Shown here: in pieces, positions 17,191 to 46,436 of the stretch | How the letters are laid out: each line of letters starts with the position of its first letter | How positions within the stretch are numbered: the stretch's first letter is position 1 | Origin: Planktothrix tepida | GTDB taxonomy: Bacteria > Cyanobacteriota > Cyanobacteriia > Cyanobacteriales > Microcoleaceae | Assembly (NCBI RefSeq): GCF_904830955.1 | Contig: NZ_LR882970.1 | DNA: 64,000 nucleotides | Reading direction: 5' to 3' (one strand) | The notes under the pieces: generated by a model | Seen by the model: only the letters and a program-made list of their open reading frames with translations | Databases searched by the model: none | What the model was told of the DNA's origin: nothing | Made by a program: the position numbers and the translations under genes

Positions 17191-17946
17191 TTACCCACAA
17201 GAACGGGACACTTTAGTTTTTAATAACTCATCTAAACTGGGGTCTTGAATCTGAAGTGAGGAAGATTCCATCAGAGCATCTGACCATAACTGATGTTCCA
17301 CAAAATATTGAATCCGAGCTAAAGTAATTGCTTCTGCGGTTGCTTTTTGTTGATGCAGTTGCGTTTCTAATTGTTCTAAATCCTGCTGAATTTTCTGGTG
17401 TTGATGGGTTTCTATGACTTTAAAAGTTAAAGAGTCACGGGGAAAATCACTGATATCAGGATTAGAGATATCATAAAGTGATAATTGATAGGTTTCTCCG
17501 GGTTGAAGTGGTTCTCCCGTATAGGAAATACTTTGCTTAGAATCCGAAATATTTTGACTCCAAATTAAAGTCTCATTGTCATCAGAATGCAGTTCTACAT
17601 ATTTAATATCCCCTCGCCAAATAAAGGTAGGTTTGTCACTCCAAATTTCACTATCAACCTGATTATTATTAGGTTGGGTTAGAGGAACAATTGTACAAAT
17701 TTCATTTCCCCGTGAACCCCCAGGAGAATAGACAGGCGGTTCATGATTAGTCGTTGAAGAATCCTGATTAGCAAGCTGATACAATTCTTCCCAAGCAGGG
17801 GAAATCTTTTTAAATTCTGAAGGATGAAACGTGGGTTCACTCAAGGCGGGAGAGATAACCGAAAATCCCATTATGCTTACCAAGGTTGTGCATCTCCAAA
17901 GAGAACGCACAAAGTTGAACTTAGCCATAAAATTTCCTTTCCACAA
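17191..17946 (-). CDS. Secreted hypothetical protein (DUF928-like), last gene of the CHAT-CHASE2 operon
   Basis: It has an N-terminal signal peptide (VSIMGFSVISPALS). 251 aa. Its start overlaps the stop of the upstream CHAT-CHASE2 gene. The family assignment is from memory of cyanobacterial DUF928 proteins, not a computed match. Confidence 0.5.
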   Translation of the reverse strand: MWKGNFMAKFNFVRSLWRCTTLVSIMGFSVISPALSEPTFHPSEFKKISPAWEELYQLANQDSSTTNHEPPVYSPGGSRGNEICTIVPLTQPNNNQVDSEIWSDKPTFIWRGDIKYVELHSDDNETLIWSQNISDSKQSISYTGEPLQPGETYQLSLYDISNPDISDFPRDSLTFKVIETHQHQKIQQDLEQLETQLHQQKATAEAITLARIQYFVEHQLWSDALMESSSLQIQDPSLDELLKTKVSRSCG

Positions 17947-20428
17947 ATGTCAGAAAAATATACATCCAAAACATCAAGGCTGGTAACACCCAAGGAAGCA
18001 AAAGTTCGCCTGTAATATAAACCTGTACACTCACTAATCCATATATTCCTGTTAATCCCACAAACACCAGGATATACTTTATTTTTTGAGGACGAACTGT
18101 TGCTAAGGATAAGGTCGCTCCTTTTCCGAATAAAGCGGCAATTAAAATCAGCAAAAGGTCAGGAATGGGAATCACAAATCGTTGCTGAATAAAGTGATGA
18201 GTCATGTAAGCATGAACTTCACCTCCCGGTAAGACTTGGCGATAATTGCGTGGTGTTTCCTGAGAATACCAATAATTTAATGCCATAGGTAAAGGAAAAT
18301 TATCTTGACCTTCTGTTGCAATTCCGGCTTCACCATATCCCCCTGGTGCAATTAGAACGACAAAGGGAGTAGAAAGTTTCAAGGTAGACTCTGGAGACTC
18401 AAATAATTGCCAAGCGGGAAGACTTTGATAAACTTGTTTTGGGGGAATTGAAAAATCAATCAGGGGATGAAACCACCATTGCTTTAATAAATATGCCCAA
18501 TTTGTGATCGGTTGTAAACGTGCTTTTGATGAAAATAACCTTTGATAATCTGTTCCGGTATTATCAATTAAATAGGCTTTTAAATGGGATAGCCAATCAA
18601 CGGATGAGTCCAGTTGAGGGGCAGGGGTAGATTCTCGTTCTTGAAAGTTTAATTGATACGCTAAAGCCAATAAATAAGCGAAGGGTAAAGGTTGTTGTCG
18701 AGAGTCAGGAAGAGGCAGTAAGGTGGTATAGAGGGGAGGATAACCTAATATTCTTAAATCGCCTTGTAAGCTCCAATTAGGACTCGCTAATTCGGGTAAG
18801 GTTTCAAACCATCCTCCGGTGGGATTTTTACTCGTTCCAAATATTAACCAAGTTTGATGATTTTGAACTGCATTTTGTAAAGATTGGGATAAGATGGGAT
18901 CGTTTTGAGGTTGATGACGATCTAATAAATAATCAATGCCAATTACTTGCATATTGAGTTTAATTAAATGATTAATAATCTCAGCTAAATAACTTCGATC
19001 CATCGGTCTTGGATTAGAAATTTTAGCTTTTAGAATAGATTTTTCATCAATTAAAATTAGTAGAATTGGGGGAGAGGATTGAGTTGGAATTTGATGAGTT
19101 AAATTTCGATAAATTGCTTGAATCAAAATTCGTCGTTCTAATAAAAAATTTTGAATAGGCGTTTGCCAAGCGATAACGCATAAGGTTGTTAGGGCAAGGA
19201 GTTCTTTTTTTGTGGGGAACCATCGTTTTAATCGTTGTTTCCAACTGAAGGCTTGTAATTTAAACGGAGGAGCTTTGGGATGGCGGAATAAGGAAGGAAT
19301 TAAATAGGCACTGGGATAAGTTAAATGTTTTTCTAATTTGAGGAATTGACAAGCGGATAATAAGGCATCATGGACATCATAATATTCCGTTAAGCTCCGA
19401 ATAAACCGTAATAAAAATTCTTGAGCCACTTGATTATGGATAGGTTCTCGCATAATCGCCACTTGATTTAATCCTAAATCAATCAAGGTATTCGCTAAAC
19501 TTAAACCATTACAAGAATTAAATAAGGCAAATTGTAAGCCTCGTTGTTTTGCAACAGTTAAGGGTTGAATCAGTTCGGATAAGGACAACGAAACTGAGGG
19601 CGCAATCCCTAATTCTCCTCCGGTTAATTCCGTTTCATTACTATGACCAGCAAATAGTAAAATATCCCAACCTTTTTGATCTTGAATAGCTTTAACGACT
19701 GCAAGTTTAACCTCCATTACAGTTTGTTGAGGTTGCCAACCGACAAACTGAATTTCTGCAATTGGAGCGAGCGCTCGCACCGCTTCTTTATCAGCTTGAA
19801 AATTTAACCCCGTTTCATCTCCTAAAATCACTAATACCCTAACTTTATTGCGGGTTGGTCGATGTTCGGGAGTCGTTGTAACCTGACGAATATTAATTGG
19901 TTGACGAACAATTCTAATTTTTCCAGTCGCCGCAAATTCTGTACCAATTTCCCACGCTTCCCAAGGAAGTCGAGCCACATCTATCGGGTCAGTGGTGAGA
20001 AACACATCAATATCTAATCCAACGCCACGCGGTAAAGTTTCTAAATTCTGCTTTGATGTCGCTTTAGCCAGAGTTGCTCGAATTTCATATAATTCTTCAT
20101 GTCTTAACCAGCGATGAAATTCATATAATAATTTTGCTTCTGCTTGAACTAATTTAGCGTGCCAATCTGTTTGGCTTTGGGTAAGTTTTCCGGTCGCTTC
20201 CACTCGACCTCGCAGTGCTTTCTGATAAAAACTCAAATAAATATATTGCCACTCTTGATACAGTTGAGTTAATCGTTCAGGATAGGGAAGCGTGACTCCC
20301 AAATTTTGCCCTTCCCCCCAAGATAATTGAAATAAGCAAACCTGCTCAACTCGTTGAACTTTGAGATAAAAAGGGGAAACAATGGCATTCATATTTAGGT
20401 TTTGAATCTTAATTGAAACTAAATTCAA
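17921..20428 (-). CDS. CHAT (caspase-like) protease domain fused to a membrane-anchored CHASE2 extracytoplasmic sensor domain
   Basis: The caspase-type catalytic dyad is present as LLFAGHSN (His) and ALFNSCNG (Cys). Downstream there is one TM segment, a CHASE2-like block (ILLILIDEKS...DRSYLAEIINHL...VIGIDYLLD) and three C-terminal TM helices. Confidence 0.8.
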   Translation of the reverse strand: MNLVSIKIQNLNMNAIVSPFYLKVQRVEQVCLFQLSWGEGQNLGVTLPYPERLTQLYQEWQYIYLSFYQKALRGRVEATGKLTQSQTDWHAKLVQAEAKLLYEFHRWLRHEELYEIRATLAKATSKQNLETLPRGVGLDIDVFLTTDPIDVARLPWEAWEIGTEFAATGKIRIVRQPINIRQVTTTPEHRPTRNKVRVLVILGDETGLNFQADKEAVRALAPIAEIQFVGWQPQQTVMEVKLAVVKAIQDQKGWDILLFAGHSNETELTGGELGIAPSVSLSLSELIQPLTVAKQRGLQFALFNSCNGLSLANTLIDLGLNQVAIMREPIHNQVAQEFLLRFIRSLTEYYDVHDALLSACQFLKLEKHLTYPSAYLIPSLFRHPKAPPFKLQAFSWKQRLKRWFPTKKELLALTTLCVIAWQTPIQNFLLERRILIQAIYRNLTHQIPTQSSPPILLILIDEKSILKAKISNPRPMDRSYLAEIINHLIKLNMQVIGIDYLLDRHQPQNDPILSQSLQNAVQNHQTWLIFGTSKNPTGGWFETLPELASPNWSLQGDLRILGYPPLYTTLLPLPDSRQQPLPFAYLLALAYQLNFQERESTPAPQLDSSVDWLSHLKAYLIDNTGTDYQRLFSSKARLQPITNWAYLLKQWWFHPLIDFSIPPKQVYQSLPAWQLFESPESTLKLSTPFVVLIAPGGYGEAGIATEGQDNFPLPMALNYWYSQETPRNYRQVLPGGEVHAYMTHHFIQQRFVIPIPDLLLILIAALFGKGATLSLATVRPQKIKYILVFVGLTGIYGLVSVQVYITGELLLPWVLPALMFWMYIFLTFVERKFYG

Positions 20429-21779
20429 AAGGCGGTAATGTTTCTGTTATATCTTCCCTTAAACTCACCGTCACCACAAATTTTTCTTGACAGGTTCCGA
20501 CCACACGAGTAAATAAATAAGAACACTGATCTTCGCGATTTGAATCTTGTTCAACTAAAATTCCGGTGGCGTCACTGACTCGTAATTTCACACCCACTGG
20601 TAAATCCGTTCCTGTAGTTAAACCTAATATTAATAATAGCGTCCATTCGGGTTCAATTTCCCATTCTAACGGCCAAGTTAAAGCATATAACCGCAGAGAA
20701 CGTCCTCCTAAACCTAAATCTCGATAAGCACCTTTGGCTTGGGGAGAAATTTCGACCCCATTTTCTTGGAGTTGTTTGACTAAACTGGAAATTTCAGTTC
20801 CGTCACGCAAGGCGGTTTCTGGAGAAAAATCTGGAATAAAAACCCAGGATAAAGCTGTTGATATTATGTCTAATTCCTGGTTAAACCATCCCGCTAAATT
20901 TAGCGTCGGTTGTGTTAATAAATTGAATAAATCTGTTAAATAAGCAATAGGATTTTTATGGAATTGAGAAATCGGTTGTGCCGATAAAATGGCTTGGTTT
21001 TGTACTTCATAAATCCATCGCAGTAATTCAGGATAACTGAAAATAATCTTTCCCTGTTCCCAAGTTAAAATTTGCCACAATTCATGAAAACTACCAGGTT
21101 CTGAGGATTGCAGTTGAGAAAGTTTGCTAATTAATTCTTCTCGAATTTGAGATAATAGTATTGCAGGATTCTGAATTTCCGGTAAAGGAATTGCAGAAAC
21201 TTCTAAACAGCGTACAAATAATAAAAATTGATCGGGTTCTGTGTTAAACCAAGATAAGGGGACAGAATATGTCCAATCTGCTTTGGGTTCTAAATCAATC
21301 TGTGTTTTATGGGCTTGAAAATCTGAATAGGAAATAAACCCATAAATTGAAGTTGTTTCTAATTCTTCTTGAACCTCAATTAAAATATAATAATGAGCCC
21401 TATATTCCGGTAATTCAAATATAGCCCTAGGTAAAATAATAGTATCCGTCCTAGAATTTCCCAAGGCGACTAAGCAGATTTTAAATTGATTGACGGCTAA
21501 GTTACAAACGGCTTCAATAAAATAAGCTAATTCAGGTTTTTCTAAAGAAGGATGATCTAAATTGAAGACAAGTTCTGATGAACGCTGTTCTAACCAATTT
21601 TGAAACCCAAAGAAGGCTAGAGAATTGAGATAGGTTTGCCATTGTTTTCGATCATCGAGAATAGAACGACAATAATCTAAGGATTGATTAATTTGTTCAG
21701 AAGATAAGGGTAAGGCTTCAGGGTTAAGCGGTTCAAACTCAAACAAAACCTCTGATTCATCTAGGAAAGAAGTAAACAT
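20409..21779 (-). CDS. DUF1822-like hypothetical protein (a cyanobacteria-restricted family)
   Basis: 456 aa with no catalytic motif. It is translationally coupled to the CHAT-CHASE2 gene: its stop overlaps that gene's start. The family call is from memory of DUF1822 sequence character. Confidence 0.5.
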   Translation of the reverse strand: MFTSFLDESEVLFEFEPLNPEALPLSSEQINQSLDYCRSILDDRKQWQTYLNSLAFFGFQNWLEQRSSELVFNLDHPSLEKPELAYFIEAVCNLAVNQFKICLVALGNSRTDTIILPRAIFELPEYRAHYYILIEVQEELETTSIYGFISYSDFQAHKTQIDLEPKADWTYSVPLSWFNTEPDQFLLFVRCLEVSAIPLPEIQNPAILLSQIREELISKLSQLQSSEPGSFHELWQILTWEQGKIIFSYPELLRWIYEVQNQAILSAQPISQFHKNPIAYLTDLFNLLTQPTLNLAGWFNQELDIISTALSWVFIPDFSPETALRDGTEISSLVKQLQENGVEISPQAKGAYRDLGLGGRSLRLYALTWPLEWEIEPEWTLLLILGLTTGTDLPVGVKLRVSDATGILVEQDSNREDQCSYLFTRVVGTCQEKFVVTVSLREDITETLPPFEFSFN

Positions 21780-21781
21780 TA

Positions 21782-23269
21782 TTAATAGCTCCGTCGGGAA
21801 TTTTTAGATAATAAAGAAATCATGGAATGAATCAATTCTGGACTTTTTTCTCTTAAATCTAAATAGTAGCAAACGCCTTTAAAAAAGGGACTATTTAGGG
21901 GACGATTTTGAGCAATATAGGAATCAGATTCAGCTTGTTTAAACAAGGTTTCCAATTCTCCATCTAAGGCTAATTCAATTTGTTTTTCCCACTGTTCTAA
22001 CTCTTGGGAAAGATGCTCAGGTTTGGCATACTCTAAAATGCGATCGCGTAACTGAAATAATAAGTGATGTCTGACATCAGCGCGAAAGGCTTTAAGCTTT
22101 AATAAACGAGTTACTTGATACTGAGCTTTTAATCCTAATGTAGCTGCAATTTCGCTCATAGATTGACCCTGACAATGAAACAGATAAAGGGCGGTTAAAA
22201 ATTGTTCCGCTTTTTCTCCGTCTCGCTTTTGGCAAGTTGTTAACCAGGTTTCTAAAACTTGAGCAATACTGCTATGTAAACACATCAAAAACTGTTTTTC
22301 ATACCAGTTTAAAAACTCCTGTTTTTTGATTTGTTCCTCATCGTTTTCTAGGGGTTCAGGGCTAGGAATTTGTTCAATGATGGAATCAGAATCATCAACA
22401 AAAATTAAGGATTGGTTGGGTAACTTTCCTCCTCGAATATAGGTGCGATATTGGCGTAATAGAGTCGCTAGATTTTGTAATTTCAGGGCGACGGCTTTAG
22501 GAGAAATCCTCTGTTGAATTAAGGTTTCTAACCGTTGAGCAATTTGTTGATATTGTTGAGCCGTTGGCGGTTGACAGCGTTTTCTAGCTCCGGCTTGACG
22601 TTGTTGTAAACGTTGGCTACGGTAAACGCTATGGTAGCAAGCTAAAAGCTGTAATCGTTGTTCAACTTCCAGGGACGTTAATTGATAAAACTGGGTTAAA
22701 ATTTTTTCCAGTTGTTGAGGATGGGTATCATTTAAAATTGCCCAATCACTCACGAGATACACCCCATGCTCTAGTAAAAACTTATTGATTTCACTATTAA
22801 ATTTAACTCGTCGGTTTGTCCAAGTTGCTAAACTACTTTGCTGGGGATCAAAGGTTTGTAAAATTTCCCGTGCAAAGGATTGATAAGAAGTTTTTGTTTG
22901 TCCTAAATGGCGCTGACGATTAATTCCTTCTTCATCCAAAACAAAGGGGAATAAGTCTTGGCTTCTAAAACCATGATAGGTTCCAAATTGTTGAGCTAAC
23001 TGAAGACAAACCTGTTCAATTTCCCAAGAAATAAAGCATAAAAGACAACATTCTGCATTTTGGCTATTGATATTATTCCCTTGAGAATTGCCATCACGAA
23101 GCCATTGTACTAATTGCTTCTGAATGGGTACATCGGGAACATCCGCCTCTGCGAGGAATTCTGGAAAAGCCCTCTCAAAAAAGGCTTTGGCTGCTGCTAT
23201 TTCCGACCGTTTTTGTCGGCCAGAACTTTCGAGTTTAACCAGTGTCCAATACTTTGATGCTTTACTCAT
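21782..23269 (-). CDS. Hypothetical protein, lead gene of the CHAT operon, with a possible C-terminal HTH-like segment
   Basis: 495 aa. Its stop lies 2 nt upstream of the DUF1822-like start. The segment MSEIAATLGLKAQYQVTRLLKLK resembles a helix-turn-helix. Otherwise unrecognised. Confidence 0.5.
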   Translation of the reverse strand: MSKASKYWTLVKLESSGRQKRSEIAAAKAFFERAFPEFLAEADVPDVPIQKQLVQWLRDGNSQGNNINSQNAECCLLCFISWEIEQVCLQLAQQFGTYHGFRSQDLFPFVLDEEGINRQRHLGQTKTSYQSFAREILQTFDPQQSSLATWTNRRVKFNSEINKFLLEHGVYLVSDWAILNDTHPQQLEKILTQFYQLTSLEVEQRLQLLACYHSVYRSQRLQQRQAGARKRCQPPTAQQYQQIAQRLETLIQQRISPKAVALKLQNLATLLRQYRTYIRGGKLPNQSLIFVDDSDSIIEQIPSPEPLENDEEQIKKQEFLNWYEKQFLMCLHSSIAQVLETWLTTCQKRDGEKAEQFLTALYLFHCQGQSMSEIAATLGLKAQYQVTRLLKLKAFRADVRHHLLFQLRDRILEYAKPEHLSQELEQWEKQIELALDGELETLFKQAESDSYIAQNRPLNSPFFKGVCYYLDLREKSPELIHSMISLLSKNSRRSY

Positions 23270-24758: not shown

Positions 24759-24967
24759 AGGTTTGGTTCCTAAAATACGTTGATTTTATTAAATCACAGA
24801 AGCAGACGGTTTCAACGAATCAAAGATCGGGCGTCGAAAAGCAGGAATTAATACTCAAACCTCAGTCCCGATTGTGATCTATTCACTAACTTATTTCGTT
24901 TTACATGATCCCCGCTTCTATTAAAAGTTATAACAGGAGTCTGGAGACAGAGGTGAACCATTAATCA

Positions 24968-25165
24968 TCCCCCCATCTCCCTTTCCCCTCATCTCCCCGT
25001 CCCCTTGTCCCCTCATCCCCCGTCCCCTTGTCCCCTTGTCCCCTTGTCCCCTTGTCCCCTTGTCCCCTTGTCCCCTTGTCCCCTTGTCCCCTTGTCCCCT
25101 TGTCCCCTCATCTCCCCGTCCCCCCGTCCCCTCATCTCCCCGTCCCATTCCCCTACTCCCCTGCA
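24968..25165. repeat. C-rich (plus strand) 8-bp microsatellite: about 10 perfect tandem copies of CCCCTTGT flanked by degenerate CCCCTCAT/CCCCGTCC units
   Basis: Seen directly at 25023-25107. It abuts the lipA stop codon at 25153-25155. Confidence 0.9.
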
Positions 25166-26082
25166 TGATAAGAACTACGAACTAACGGCCCAGAACGAAC
25201 TTGAGCAAAACCCATCTCCGTTGCGATCGCTCCTAAATGCTCAAATTCTTCCGGTGTCCAATATTTTTGGACGGGGAGATGCTCTAAAGACGGACGCATA
25301 TATTGACCGAGGGTAATGCGATCGCATCCCGCCCCGCGTAAATCTGTTAAAGTTTCAATAATTTCTGCTTCCGTTTCCCCGTGCCCTAACATTAAACCGG
25401 ATTTTGTAGGAATTCGAGGATCAAGCTGTTTCACAATTCTTAATACATCGAGCGATCGCTCATATTTTGCGCCCCGTCTGACAGGCGCTTGTAACCGTTG
25501 GACAGTTTCGACATTATGGTTATAACAGGCAGGTTGAGCTTTAACTACAGTGGCAATGCGTTGATATTGAAGGGCTTGGGGATTCCCCCCACCTTGCCCG
25601 CCCCAAAAGTCAGCCGTTAGAACTTCAATCTGAGTCTCTGGGGTGAGATGTCGGATGGCATCCATGGTCGCGACAAACCAGCCTGACCCCGCATCGGCTA
25701 AATCATCTCGCGCCACAGAGGTTAAAACCACATACCGTAACCCTAAAATTTGTACCGCTTCCGCTACCTTTTGGGGTTCTTCTGGATCAAGGGACATGGG
25801 TGCATGACCCTTATCCACCTGACAAAAAGCGCAGGAACGGGTACAAGTTGGCCCCATTAACAAAAATGTTGCGGTTTTCTGAGCATAACATTCCCCTCGA
25901 TTTGGACAACGACCTTCTTCACAAATGGTGTGAATTTGACGCTGTTTGATAATTCGTTGTACCGCAGAGAGTTCACTCGCTTTACCCAGGGGACGGCGTA
26001 ACCAATAAGGGAGCGGTTCAACAAAATTTTGAGACCGATTACGATAAGATTGTTCAGCAGAGGAATGGGGAGATGGGGACAT
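25153..26082 (-). CDS. lipA: Lipoyl synthase
   Basis: The radical-SAM CxxxCxxC motif is present as [11 protein letters not shown], along with the auxiliary cluster [12 protein letters not shown]. 309 aa. Confidence 0.9.
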
Positions 26083-28412: not shown

Positions 28413-28548
28413 GGGAACAGGGAATAGGGGGACAAGGGGACAAGGGGATGAGGGGATGAGGGGATGAGGGGATGAGGGGATGAGGGGATGAGGGGATGAG
28501 GGGATGAGGGGATGAGGGGATGAGGGGAAGGGGAGATGGGGGAATGTT
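28413..28548. repeat. G-rich (plus strand) 8-bp microsatellite: GACAAGGG x2 then GATGAGGG x about 10
   Basis: Seen directly. It begins 3 nt after the kinase stop. Runs of four G separated by four nt satisfy the G-quadruplex consensus. Confidence 0.9.
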
Positions 28549-45353: not shown

Positions 45354-46436
45354 TTAGTGGGCTAACCACCAGCCAAAACTCAAGCCCAGACCGGAGGTAA
45401 TCGCTAAAATTAAAAAGGTGTAAAATCCATTGTAGGACGCAAGTAATTTTTCTCCGGCAACCATTTGCGCCACCGTCCCTGCAACCACAGCGATCGCACC
45501 CCAAGCCGCAATAATCACCTCTGGCTGCATTCGTTGGATCACCCGCATCATCGCTTGTTTCCCGGCGCCGATCCAAGCTCCGATCCATCCTCCTAAGACT
45601 AATCCCAATAAACTTCCGGTTCCCAGTTTCGCCCTAGACCGAAAAATCGCATCTAAAATAATTCCTAACATTAATCCCATTATGGAGCCAAAACCCCCAC
45701 CCACCAAAGAACTTAACCAGTCTCCCTTTTTCGTTCCGGCGATTAACCCAGCAATTGCCGCAATTCCCATGATTGTCAAGAGCCCAATTACCCCTTTAGC
45801 AGGGCTTTCTGAGCCTGCCATCGCCCCTAATCCCAAGCCCACGCCTCCCCAGACTAGGGCGGTAATCATCCCCCCAGCTTCGTTTCCTAACACCCATCCG
45901 GCGATCGCTCCGGCAAAGATTAAGGCCATTAACCAAGGTTGACCGGACTCAGAATCTTCACTCGCCGCGATCGTAACCATGAGCCAACCCACGCTGAGAA
46001 AGACCCAAACCCAGGAAGGAATCTTCAATGTGGTTAAAATCCAGGCAATGATGGCATAGCTGAGAAAGACCCCGGTTAACCAACCCATTGGTAGAGGTGG
46101 GGAAGTTGGGGGCACTTCGACAGGCTTAGTGACCACAGGGGGAGTTGGGGGTACTTCGACAGGCTCAGTAACCACAGGGGGAGTTGGGAGGGTAGGGTAG
46201 GGGCTACTTAAATCTGTTTTTAAGGTTTCGTAGGCGTGGCTAATTTCTTTAAATTTGGCTTCCGCTTCCGCTTGTAAGATAGAATTCTGGGGATAGCGAT
46301 CGGGATGCCAAATCAACGCCTGATGGCGATAGGCTTGTCTGACCTCCTCTAAGGACGCCCCCGGTTCTAGGTTTAAAATTTTGTAGTATTTTTCGATCTC
46401 CACGTTTGAAATCTGTTGATCTTCTTTTATTTTCAC
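45354..46436 (-). CDS. J-domain protein with a Pro-rich tandem-repeat linker and a C-terminal Gly-zipper multi-TM domain
   Basis: The J domain YYKILNLEPGASLEEVRQAYRHQALIWHPDR carries HPD. The repeated PPVVT(E/K)PVEVPPT unit occurs twice. The C-terminal half is hydrophobic and G/A-rich. Confidence 0.7.
   Translation of the reverse strand: MKIKEDQQISNVEIEKYYKILNLEPGASLEEVRQAYRHQALIWHPDRYPQNSILQAEAEAKFKEISHAYETLKTDLSSPYPTLPTPPVVTEPVEVPPTPPVVTKPVEVPPTSPPLPMGWLTGVFLSYAIIAWILTTLKIPSWVWVFLSVGWLMVTIAASEDSESGQPWLMALIFAGAIAGWVLGNEAGGMITALVWGGVGLGLGAMAGSESPAKGVIGLLTIMGIAAIAGLIAGTKKGDWLSSLVGGGFGSIMGLMLGIILDAIFRSRAKLGTGSLLGLVLGGWIGAWIGAGKQAMMRVIQRMQPEVIIAAWGAIAVVAGTVAQMVAGEKLLASYNGFYTFLILAITSGLGLSFGWWLAH

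Follow-up and report, generated by a model that had tools for sequence, protein, structure and literature searches.

A CHAT-CHASE2 gene in a four-gene operon of Planktothrix tepida: a putative transmembrane receptor-protease with a sigma-like neighbour

Introduction

Fusions of a caspase-fold protease to the sensor domain CHASE2 have been described before. Jiang et al. 2010 (PMC2853523) listed a metacaspase with CHASE2 from Trichodesmium erythraeum, and Asplund-Samuelsson et al. 2012 (PMC3501461) described an N-terminal metacaspase with a C-terminal CHASE2 domain, which is flanked by one and three transmembrane (TM) helices; in their reading the receptor faces outward, and the protease is free in the cytoplasm. 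In an in silico study, Kaur, Iyer, Burroughs & Aravind 2021 (eLife, PMC8195603) describe, in the passages that concern such proteins, EACC2 and caspase domains followed by a variable C-terminus, including a TM-flanked CHASE2. The same passages report DUF1822 genes and genes for extracytoplasmic function (ECF) sigma factors as neighbours of the EACC2-caspase genes, propose a stimulus-induced autopeptidase activation via the constant caspase domain that feeds into the sigma factor, and place EACC2-caspase among the apoptosis/immunity-like conflict systems of multicellular prokaryotes. Here we analyze a gene of this kind from Planktothrix tepida. It lies on the minus strand of a stretch of 64,000 nucleotides from contig NZ_LR882970.1 (the window in the following) and encodes a CHAT protease domain followed by a CHASE2 domain. 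This layout and the gene neighbourhood are annotated, widespread and already published; the interest of the gene rests on function, that is on the ligand, the substrate and the role of the sigma-like neighbour, and not on the layout.

The Trichodesmium metacaspase-CHASE2 protein, likened here by its published description, has the same inverted layout as the window protein: a caspase-fold protease, one TM helix, an extracellular CHASE2 domain and three TM helices. It was detected as Peptidase_C14 (metacaspase p20), whereas the window protein is detected as CHAT; a Trichodesmium homologue of the window protein exists (P0045). The window operon also fits, point by point, what the above passages of Kaur et al. 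2021 describe, namely an alpha+beta domain, a caspase/CHAT domain, a TM-flanked CHASE2 and upstream DUF1822 and sigma-like genes, with EACC2 identity judged only as an alpha+beta domain being present. No TRADD-N gene is adjacent to the window operon, which matches the 'independent' subtype of these passages. Two features differ. The sigma-like protein of the window has 495 aa, far more than a typical ECF sigma factor, and lacks a sigma Pfam match; and the downstream DUF928 gene, although conserved, is not mentioned in the passages concerned.

The understanding of prokaryotic CHAT and other caspase-like proteases is still at its beginning and comes mostly from CRISPR and CBASS immunity. In SAVED-CHAT (type III-B/CBASS; Steens et al.) the protease becomes active when a ligand makes the fused sensor domain oligomerise. 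This system is the best structural match of the window protein and the precedent for an activation by oligomerisation; SAVED-CHAT is however soluble, with a sensor that binds cyclic oligoadenylate and precedes CHAT, while the window protein is predicted to be transmembrane and has CHAT first. In Craspase (type III-E CRISPR) the TPR-CHAT protein Csx29 cuts Csx30, a partner that holds CASP-sigma/RpoE (ECF-type). Like the system proposed here, Craspase has a CHAT protease under the allosteric control of a sensor module, which switches it on, and a target that is linked to a sigma factor; its sensor is the RNA-guided Cas7-11 complex in the cytoplasm, whereas that of the window protein is a transmembrane CHASE2. 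Further precedents for a protease that frees a sigma factor are CalpL-CalpT-CalpS and PCaspase-PCc-sigma. The DdvA-DdvS pair of Myxococcus xanthus consists of a transmembrane anti-sigma factor with a TPR-CHAT domain, for which trans-autoproteolysis was proposed, and an ECF sigma factor. Like the window protein, DdvA combines a CHAT fold with membrane anchoring and is tied to a sigma factor, in the case of DdvA genetically and physically. In DdvA, however, CHAT is periplasmic with an incomplete dyad, and the sigma factor is bound in the cytoplasm by a zinc-binding anti-sigma domain; in the window protein CHAT is predicted to be cytoplasmic, with a complete and invariant dyad, and it is CHASE2 that is predicted to be periplasmic.

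The canonical CHASE2 receptors, as reportedly defined by Zhulin et al. in 2003, are adenylate and diguanylate cyclases, histidine kinases and Ser/Thr kinases. No ligand of CHASE2 has, to our knowledge, found acceptance since that year. These receptors share with the window protein the sensor cassette of TM1, an ectodomain of ~300 aa and three TM helices. The window protein differs from them in that its output domain stands before TM1 and not after TM4, and in that this output is a protease and not a nucleotide cyclase or kinase.

From the data below we favour, at slightly better than even confidence, a one-component transmembrane receptor-protease (EACC2-like domain, CHAT, TM1-CHASE2-3TM) that would switch on the sigma-like factor by proteolysis.

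Results

Domain organisation

The gene and the parts of its product are given below; residues in this list are numbered from the ATG at 20392, and segments of the AlphaFold2 (AF2) model stand in brackets.

17921..20392, minus strand: coding sequence of the CHAT-CHASE2 receptor-protease, 823 aa counted from the ATG
20048..20392, minus strand: N-terminal alpha+beta domain, about residues 1-115 (AF2: three beta-strands at 6-36, then three helices at 39-113)
19277..20017, minus strand: CHAT (caspase-fold) protease domain, from Pfam CHAT, Foldseek matches and conservation (AF2: alpha/beta domain 128-370)
19142..19204, minus strand: TM1, from the AF2 helix and family hydropathy (AF2: within a long continuous helix, 395-432, that joins CHAT to CHASE2)
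18167..19096, minus strand: CHASE2 ectodomain of ~310 aa, predicted periplasmic, from Pfam, AF2 and charge pattern (AF2: alpha/beta domain 443-742)
17942..18160, minus strand: TM2-TM4 and a short cytoplasmic tail at the end of the protein, from hydropathy peaks, AF2 helices and loop charges (AF2: terminal helices 745-765, 770-795 and 802-817)

The order of the domains is evident from two sources. The Pfam model CHAT (PF12770) matched residues 152-359 with 24.8 bits against a cut-off of 24 (E 1.8e-5), which is a borderline pass, and CHASE2 (PF05226) matched residues 416-767 with 58.9 bits, above its threshold of 26.3. PF12770 is precomputed for most homologues as well. The AF2 model, which was computed from an alignment of 47 sequences and has a mean pLDDT of 81.2, shows CHAT, one TM helix, CHASE2 and three TM helices in the same succession. 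An initial annotation of the gene had placed a CHAT effector N-terminal to a TM-CHASE2-TM sensor and had named structure prediction as a check; both the Pfam matches and the model confirm this order.

The mechanical open reading frame of the gene is longer (17921..20428, minus strand, 835 aa) and opens at a TTG at 20428. The true start is most likely the ATG at 20392, which gives 823 aa rather than 835, because homologues align only from Met13 onward, because this ATG lies 16 nt downstream of the stop of the preceding DUF1822 gene and because the TTG start (20392-20428) overlaps the end of that gene by 20 nt.

Conservation was analyzed in 125 sequences, i.e. the query and 124 representatives of 50%-identity clusters, which are 38-58% identical to the query and were aligned with MAFFT in fast mode. 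The mean column identity was highest in CHAT (0.59), followed by the TM1 helix region (0.56), TM2-4 (0.42) and the CHASE2 ectodomain (0.38). The N-terminal alpha+beta domain, which was absent from the initial annotation, is modelled with a pLDDT mostly near 90 and has conserved residues at W48, Y52, Y56, W95 and L96. As a predicted alpha+beta domain in this position, and judged by this presence only, it may correspond to the constant module that Kaur et al. 2021 call 'EACC2'.

The CHAT protease domain

The two catalytic motifs that had been proposed for the protein are both present: LLFAGHSN covers residues 257-264 and ALFNSCNG residues 301-308. They contain the dyad of His262 (codon 19643-19645) and Cys306 (codon 19511-19513). 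In the AF2 model His262 comes after strand 244-248 and Cys306 closes strand 288-295 (strands numbered from the ATG). Conservation among homologues had been set beforehand as the test that could refute this dyad; His262 and Cys306 turned out to be invariant among 47 close homologues as well as in 125/125 sequences, and the same is true in these 125 for the flanking residues F-x-G-H-S-x-E and F-N-S-C-x-G. A dyad that is invariant across 125 sequences suggests that the protease is under selection to stay active. Judged from this conservation, the CHAT domain is apparently an active caspase-fold cysteine protease. The segment YPSAYLIPSLFRHP, which follows CHAT, is conserved as well.

When the AF2 model was compared with the PDB by Foldseek, the best match of the CHAT part was SAVED-CHAT (8tl0, E 4.5e-9). 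Further matches were Csx29 (7zoq, 8eex, 7y9x; E 7.3e-9), separase (E 1.9e-8), DdvA (8rot, 8rw5; E 1.8e-5) and caspase-9 (E 6.4e-5). These matches to caspase folds lend support to the borderline Pfam score of the CHAT domain.

Membrane topology and the CHASE2 sensor

The three terminal helices of the query reach Kyte-Doolittle hydropathy peaks of 2.07 (TM2), 1.86 (TM3) and 1.88 (TM4). In the average of the 125 sequences TM1 forms a peak of 1.57, which is preceded by a K/R-rich segment. The hydropathy scan found no hydrophobic segment upstream of residue ~400, so that there is nothing to export the first ~395 residues. Averaged over the 125 sequences, 3.4 K+R residues stand just ahead of TM1 and 2.3 in the loop between TM2 and TM3, while the loop between TM3 and TM4 has 0.09 and the C-tail 1.9. 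Because these counts follow the positive-inside rule and because the family hydropathy shows TM1, the data fit a predicted topology with the N-terminus inside, four TM helices and CHASE2 outside. An alternative topology, with a TM1 that is not membrane-spanning and a cytoplasmic CHASE2, was rejected; the TM2-3 loop and the C-tail, both K/R-rich, would then face outward, and the TM3-4 loop, which is uncharged, would lie inside. The initial annotation had proposed the layout of one and three TM helices around a periplasmic CHASE2 region of ~300 aa, to be abandoned if CHASE2 were predicted in the cytoplasm. The AF2 helices, the hydropathy and the K+R counts support this layout as a prediction, and both family hydropathy and the positive-inside rule speak for CHASE2 outside. 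The CHASE2 domain itself is modelled as an alpha/beta fold with a pLDDT mostly between 80 and 95.

The prediction of four TM helices has a consequence for signalling. It had been reasoned that a signal would have to travel back to an N-terminal protease. This does not hold: with four TM helices both termini of the protein are predicted to be cytoplasmic, and a signal would leave the sensor by TM1 instead of TM4. The TM1 helix region contains R421, Q425 and R429, which are invariant in the 125 sequences, and a K/R-rich linker of ~22 residues lies between CHAT and TM1. TM1 is the probable signalling helix. An activation of CHAT by oligomerisation, as the initial annotation suggested, is plausible in analogy to SAVED-CHAT filaments and caspase dimers.

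Gene neighbourhood

CHAT-CHASE2 is gene 3 of four closely packed genes on the same strand. This context was absent from the initial annotation and provides the strongest clue to function. The three other genes are:

21782..23269, minus strand: gene 1, divergent sigma-70-family-like protein of 495 aa, putative transcriptional output
20409..21779, minus strand: gene 2, DUF1822 protein of 456 aa (Pfam DUF1822, 185.9 bits)
17191..17928, minus strand: gene 4, DUF928-like protein of 245 aa from the ATG (Pfam DUF928, 21.2 bits, below the cut-off of 26)

The DUF1822 gene opens 2 nt past the end of the sigma-like gene, and the start of the DUF928-like gene overlaps the stop of CHAT-CHASE2 by 8 nt. The N-terminus of the DUF928-like protein (MAKFNFVRSLWRCTTLVSIMGFSVISPALS/EP) is signal-peptide-like, and the protein is a candidate for a periplasmic partner of CHASE2. 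The DUF1822 protein is a candidate adaptor, anti-sigma factor or protease substrate; a profile search found no relative of it in the PDB, and in the literature DUF1822 turned up in two papers only. A scan of the operon for promoters and terminators gave no excess of sites over shuffled sequence. The genes around the operon in the window are murA-like, alanine dehydrogenase-like, Ap4A phosphorylase and DJ-1.

The operon linkage was examined in 64 related loci, counting only those with enough flanking DNA. In 32 of 51 loci CHAT-CHASE2 is immediately preceded by the sigma-like and DUF1822 genes, and in 38 of 54 a DUF928-like gene follows it immediately. Both gene pairs share one operon in Planktothrix and in many other genera. 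The four-gene operon was also seen with more distant CHAT-CHASE2 homologues (36-51% identity), and the pairing of CHASE2 with DUF928 is kept even in loci that lack the sigma-like and DUF1822 genes.

The sigma-like neighbour

The view that the 495-aa neighbour is a sigma-70-family-like factor has moderate support from structure comparison, which suggested a resemblance to sigma-2 and to a sigma-4-like helix-turn-helix (HTH); sequence searches gave no such signal. The window protein matched no Sigma70 Pfam model and no NCBIfam model, and only one of 20 relatives touched Sigma70_r4_2 (E 0.055). A full-length profile searched against the PDB found a DeoR HTH and a spurious coiled-coil-like match and nothing else; sub-profiles of the putative sigma-2 and sigma-4 regions did not reach a sigma factor there either. 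The family is large, with 998 homologues at E <= 1e-5, and nearly every record that gives a name calls them 'hypothetical protein'. In 42 sequences of the family C78, C88, C232 and C366 are invariant and C75 and C467 nearly so; such cysteines might indicate metal or redox sensing.

Distribution of the family

More than 1,444 proteins match the CHAT-CHASE2 protein at E <= 1e-5. Most of the 120 best matches have 804-892 aa and carry both Pfam domains, CHAT and CHASE2; the closest among the matches listed is a 'CHASE2 domain-containing protein [Planktothrix mougeotii]' with 97% identity. A search with the N-terminal 388 residues alone found 2,020 cluster representatives, 1,781 of them at E <= 1e-10 and 284 at E <= 1e-30, which points to a much larger family with a shared N-terminal module. 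Among the best 150 of these 2,020 nearly all are CHASE2 fusions. Nearly all members of the family that were recovered come from filamentous cyanobacteria, as judged from the related loci and the matches listed.

All but one of the related loci (63/64) are cyanobacterial. The exception, L064, is a contig of 332 nt labelled as a Marinobacter metagenome-assembled genome; it encodes a 49-residue fragment, which is 67% identical to the CHAT region, and is most likely a binning contaminant and not a proteobacterial homologue. Several genomes have at least two paralogous copies, e.g. Capilliphycus. Three full-length homologues (P0021, P0029, P0110) are named 'histidine kinase' in public records, where their precomputed Pfam domains are only CHASE2, alone or with CHAT; the name looks like a carry-over from the canonical CHASE2 receptors.

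Discussion

Proposed mechanism

In the receptor-protease that we favour, a cue from the envelope or periplasm or from outside the cell would bind the CHASE2 ectodomain, possibly together with or through the secreted DUF928 protein. The resulting change would pass via the conserved TM1 and the K/R-rich linker to the juxtamembrane CHAT domain. There the protease could be switched on through an oligomeric shift, for which SAVED-CHAT filaments and caspase dimers are models, or through a change of conformation like that of Craspase. The activated protease would then cut a specific cytoplasmic target, with DUF1822, an inhibitory segment of the sigma-like factor and the linker of the protease itself as the best candidates. 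The sigma-like factor would thereby be freed and transcription redirected. The data show the identity and order of the domains, the conservation of the dyad and the operon linkage, and they predict the topology; ligand sensing, the route of activation, the substrate and the sigma output are all inferred from analogy and from the gene neighbourhood. It counts in favour of this mechanism that the relevant passages of Kaur et al. 2021 arrive independently at the same proposal on the level of the system.

Several observations weigh against it. TM1 of the query is itself weakly hydrophobic, with a 19-residue Kyte-Doolittle value of ~1.17. No substrate site was identified, and in the literature we found no experimental study of any member of the CHAT-CHASE2 family. 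The linkage to the putative output is also incomplete: in 19 of 51 loci CHAT-CHASE2 lacks the sigma-like and DUF1822 genes as neighbours. The homologues from Okeania, Dapis and Coleofasciculus, which with 51-61% identity are the closest outside Planktothrix, are stand-alone genes (L002-L026, e.g. L012 8001-10502 and L021 7980-10445). Conversely, the closest homologues of the sigma-like protein, from Okeania and Capilliphycus, are encoded in loci of the order Peptidase_S8+PPC (subtilisin), sigma-like, DUF1822, which have no CHAT-CHASE2:

L065, 6210-10917: S8+PPC, sigma-like and DUF1822 genes
L066, 2530-10842: the same arrangement
L067, 654-5526: the same arrangement

Together, the stand-alone CHAT-CHASE2 loci and the sigma-like/DUF1822 loci without CHAT-CHASE2 indicate that the sigma-like/DUF1822 pair and the CHAT-CHASE2/DUF928 pair are separable modules. 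Different proteases may serve the sigma-like/DUF1822 pair in different genomes. In Okeania a gene for a 968-aa TPR-CHAT protein lies just upstream of such an S8+PPC, sigma-like, DUF1822 locus.

Alternative explanations

The protein could instead be an effector of conflict or programmed cell death, in which CHASE2 would detect envelope damage, phage attachment or a kin/non-kin signal and CHAT would degrade many proteins, leading to growth arrest or death within the filament, with the sigma-like factor as a secondary amplifier. This is consistent with the placement of EACC2-caspase among conflict systems in the passages of Kaur et al. 2021, with the immune role of SAVED-CHAT and Csx29, which are proteases of similar structure, with the discussion of programmed cell death in the literature on caspase-like proteases from filamentous cyanobacteria, and with the several paralogous copies per genome, as in Capilliphycus. 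However, PADLOC gave no match for any of the four operon proteins and the operon stands among housekeeping genes and not in a defence island; together this weakens a defence-island reading. The conserved pairing with a sigma-like gene furthermore points to a transcriptional outcome over a purely lethal one, and we consider the effector explanation rather unlikely. Somewhat different is the idea of an autoproteolytic release, by which CHAT would cleave the juxtamembrane linker of its own chain, or in trans that of its partner in a dimer, and so free a soluble EACC2-CHAT, in a kind of inverted regulated intramembrane proteolysis. The K/R-rich linker between CHAT and TM1 would suit such a cut, 'autopeptidase activation' is what Kaur et al. 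2021 propose in the passages on these proteins, and the trans-autoproteolysis proposed for DdvA is a further parallel. A conserved cleavage motif was however not identified. This explanation is compatible with the favoured receptor-protease and does not exclude it; on its own merits we hold it to be unlikely.

Two further explanations concern the nature of the protease. The sole NCBIfam match of the protein is the HetF equivalog (NF045509), which covers the CHAT region only, with an E of 0.0024. This match, and the recovery of the family almost only from filamentous cyanobacteria, would suit a HetF-like developmental or cell-division protease that acts on division or differentiation proteins and is unrelated to its sigma-like neighbour. 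The score of 16.2 bits against a cut-off of 1200 nevertheless means that the protein is not a HetF orthologue. HetF, as far as we know, has no CHASE2, and the conserved operon shared with sigma-like and DUF1822 genes speaks rather for a module dedicated to signalling; a HetF-like role is therefore quite improbable. The borderline Pfam score of CHAT (24.8 versus 24), on the other hand, could be taken to mean an inactive pseudo-protease, in which CHAT is a scaffold that signals without proteolysis, and DdvA demonstrates that CHAT domains with an incomplete active site exist. We rejected this as highly improbable, since His262, Cys306 and the flanking G-H-S and F-N-S-C-x-G motifs are invariant across all 125 sequences.

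Significance

Beyond the favoured receptor-protease, a more specific proposal for the operon can be made, which we regard as possible but doubtful. The four genes may form a self-contained transmembrane pathway, in which CHASE2 and a secreted DUF928 co-sensor gate the caspase-like protease via TM1, and in which the specific substrate is either DUF1822, in the role of an anti-sigma factor, or a segment by which the large divergent sigma factor inhibits itself. If this is true, multicellular cyanobacteria would possess a caspase-driven, membrane-coupled route of sigma activation, of a kind not yet shown experimentally, and its transcriptional read-out could help to find the ligand of CHASE2. With one operon and a predicted transcriptional read-out, the module is a tractable system. 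With it one could address the question of what CHASE2 senses, and whether gene expression in filamentous bloom-formers such as Planktothrix is under the control of caspase-like proteolysis.

Other features of the window

The window also contains tandem repeats outside the operon. Two octamer arrays, at 24965-25146 and 28435-28543, consist of ~14 copies of GTCCCCTT inside an array with a period of 24 nt, and of ~14 copies of AGGGGATG; they look like cyanobacterial short tandem repeats. An 81-aa 'open reading frame' at 24921-25166 on the minus strand, with RGDEGT/RGQGDKGT repeats, is merely the first of these arrays in translation. A further tandem repeat, with a unit of 39 nt, is found at 46099-46188 (2.3 copies, 92% matches), in or adjoining the open reading frame 45354-46436 on the minus strand.

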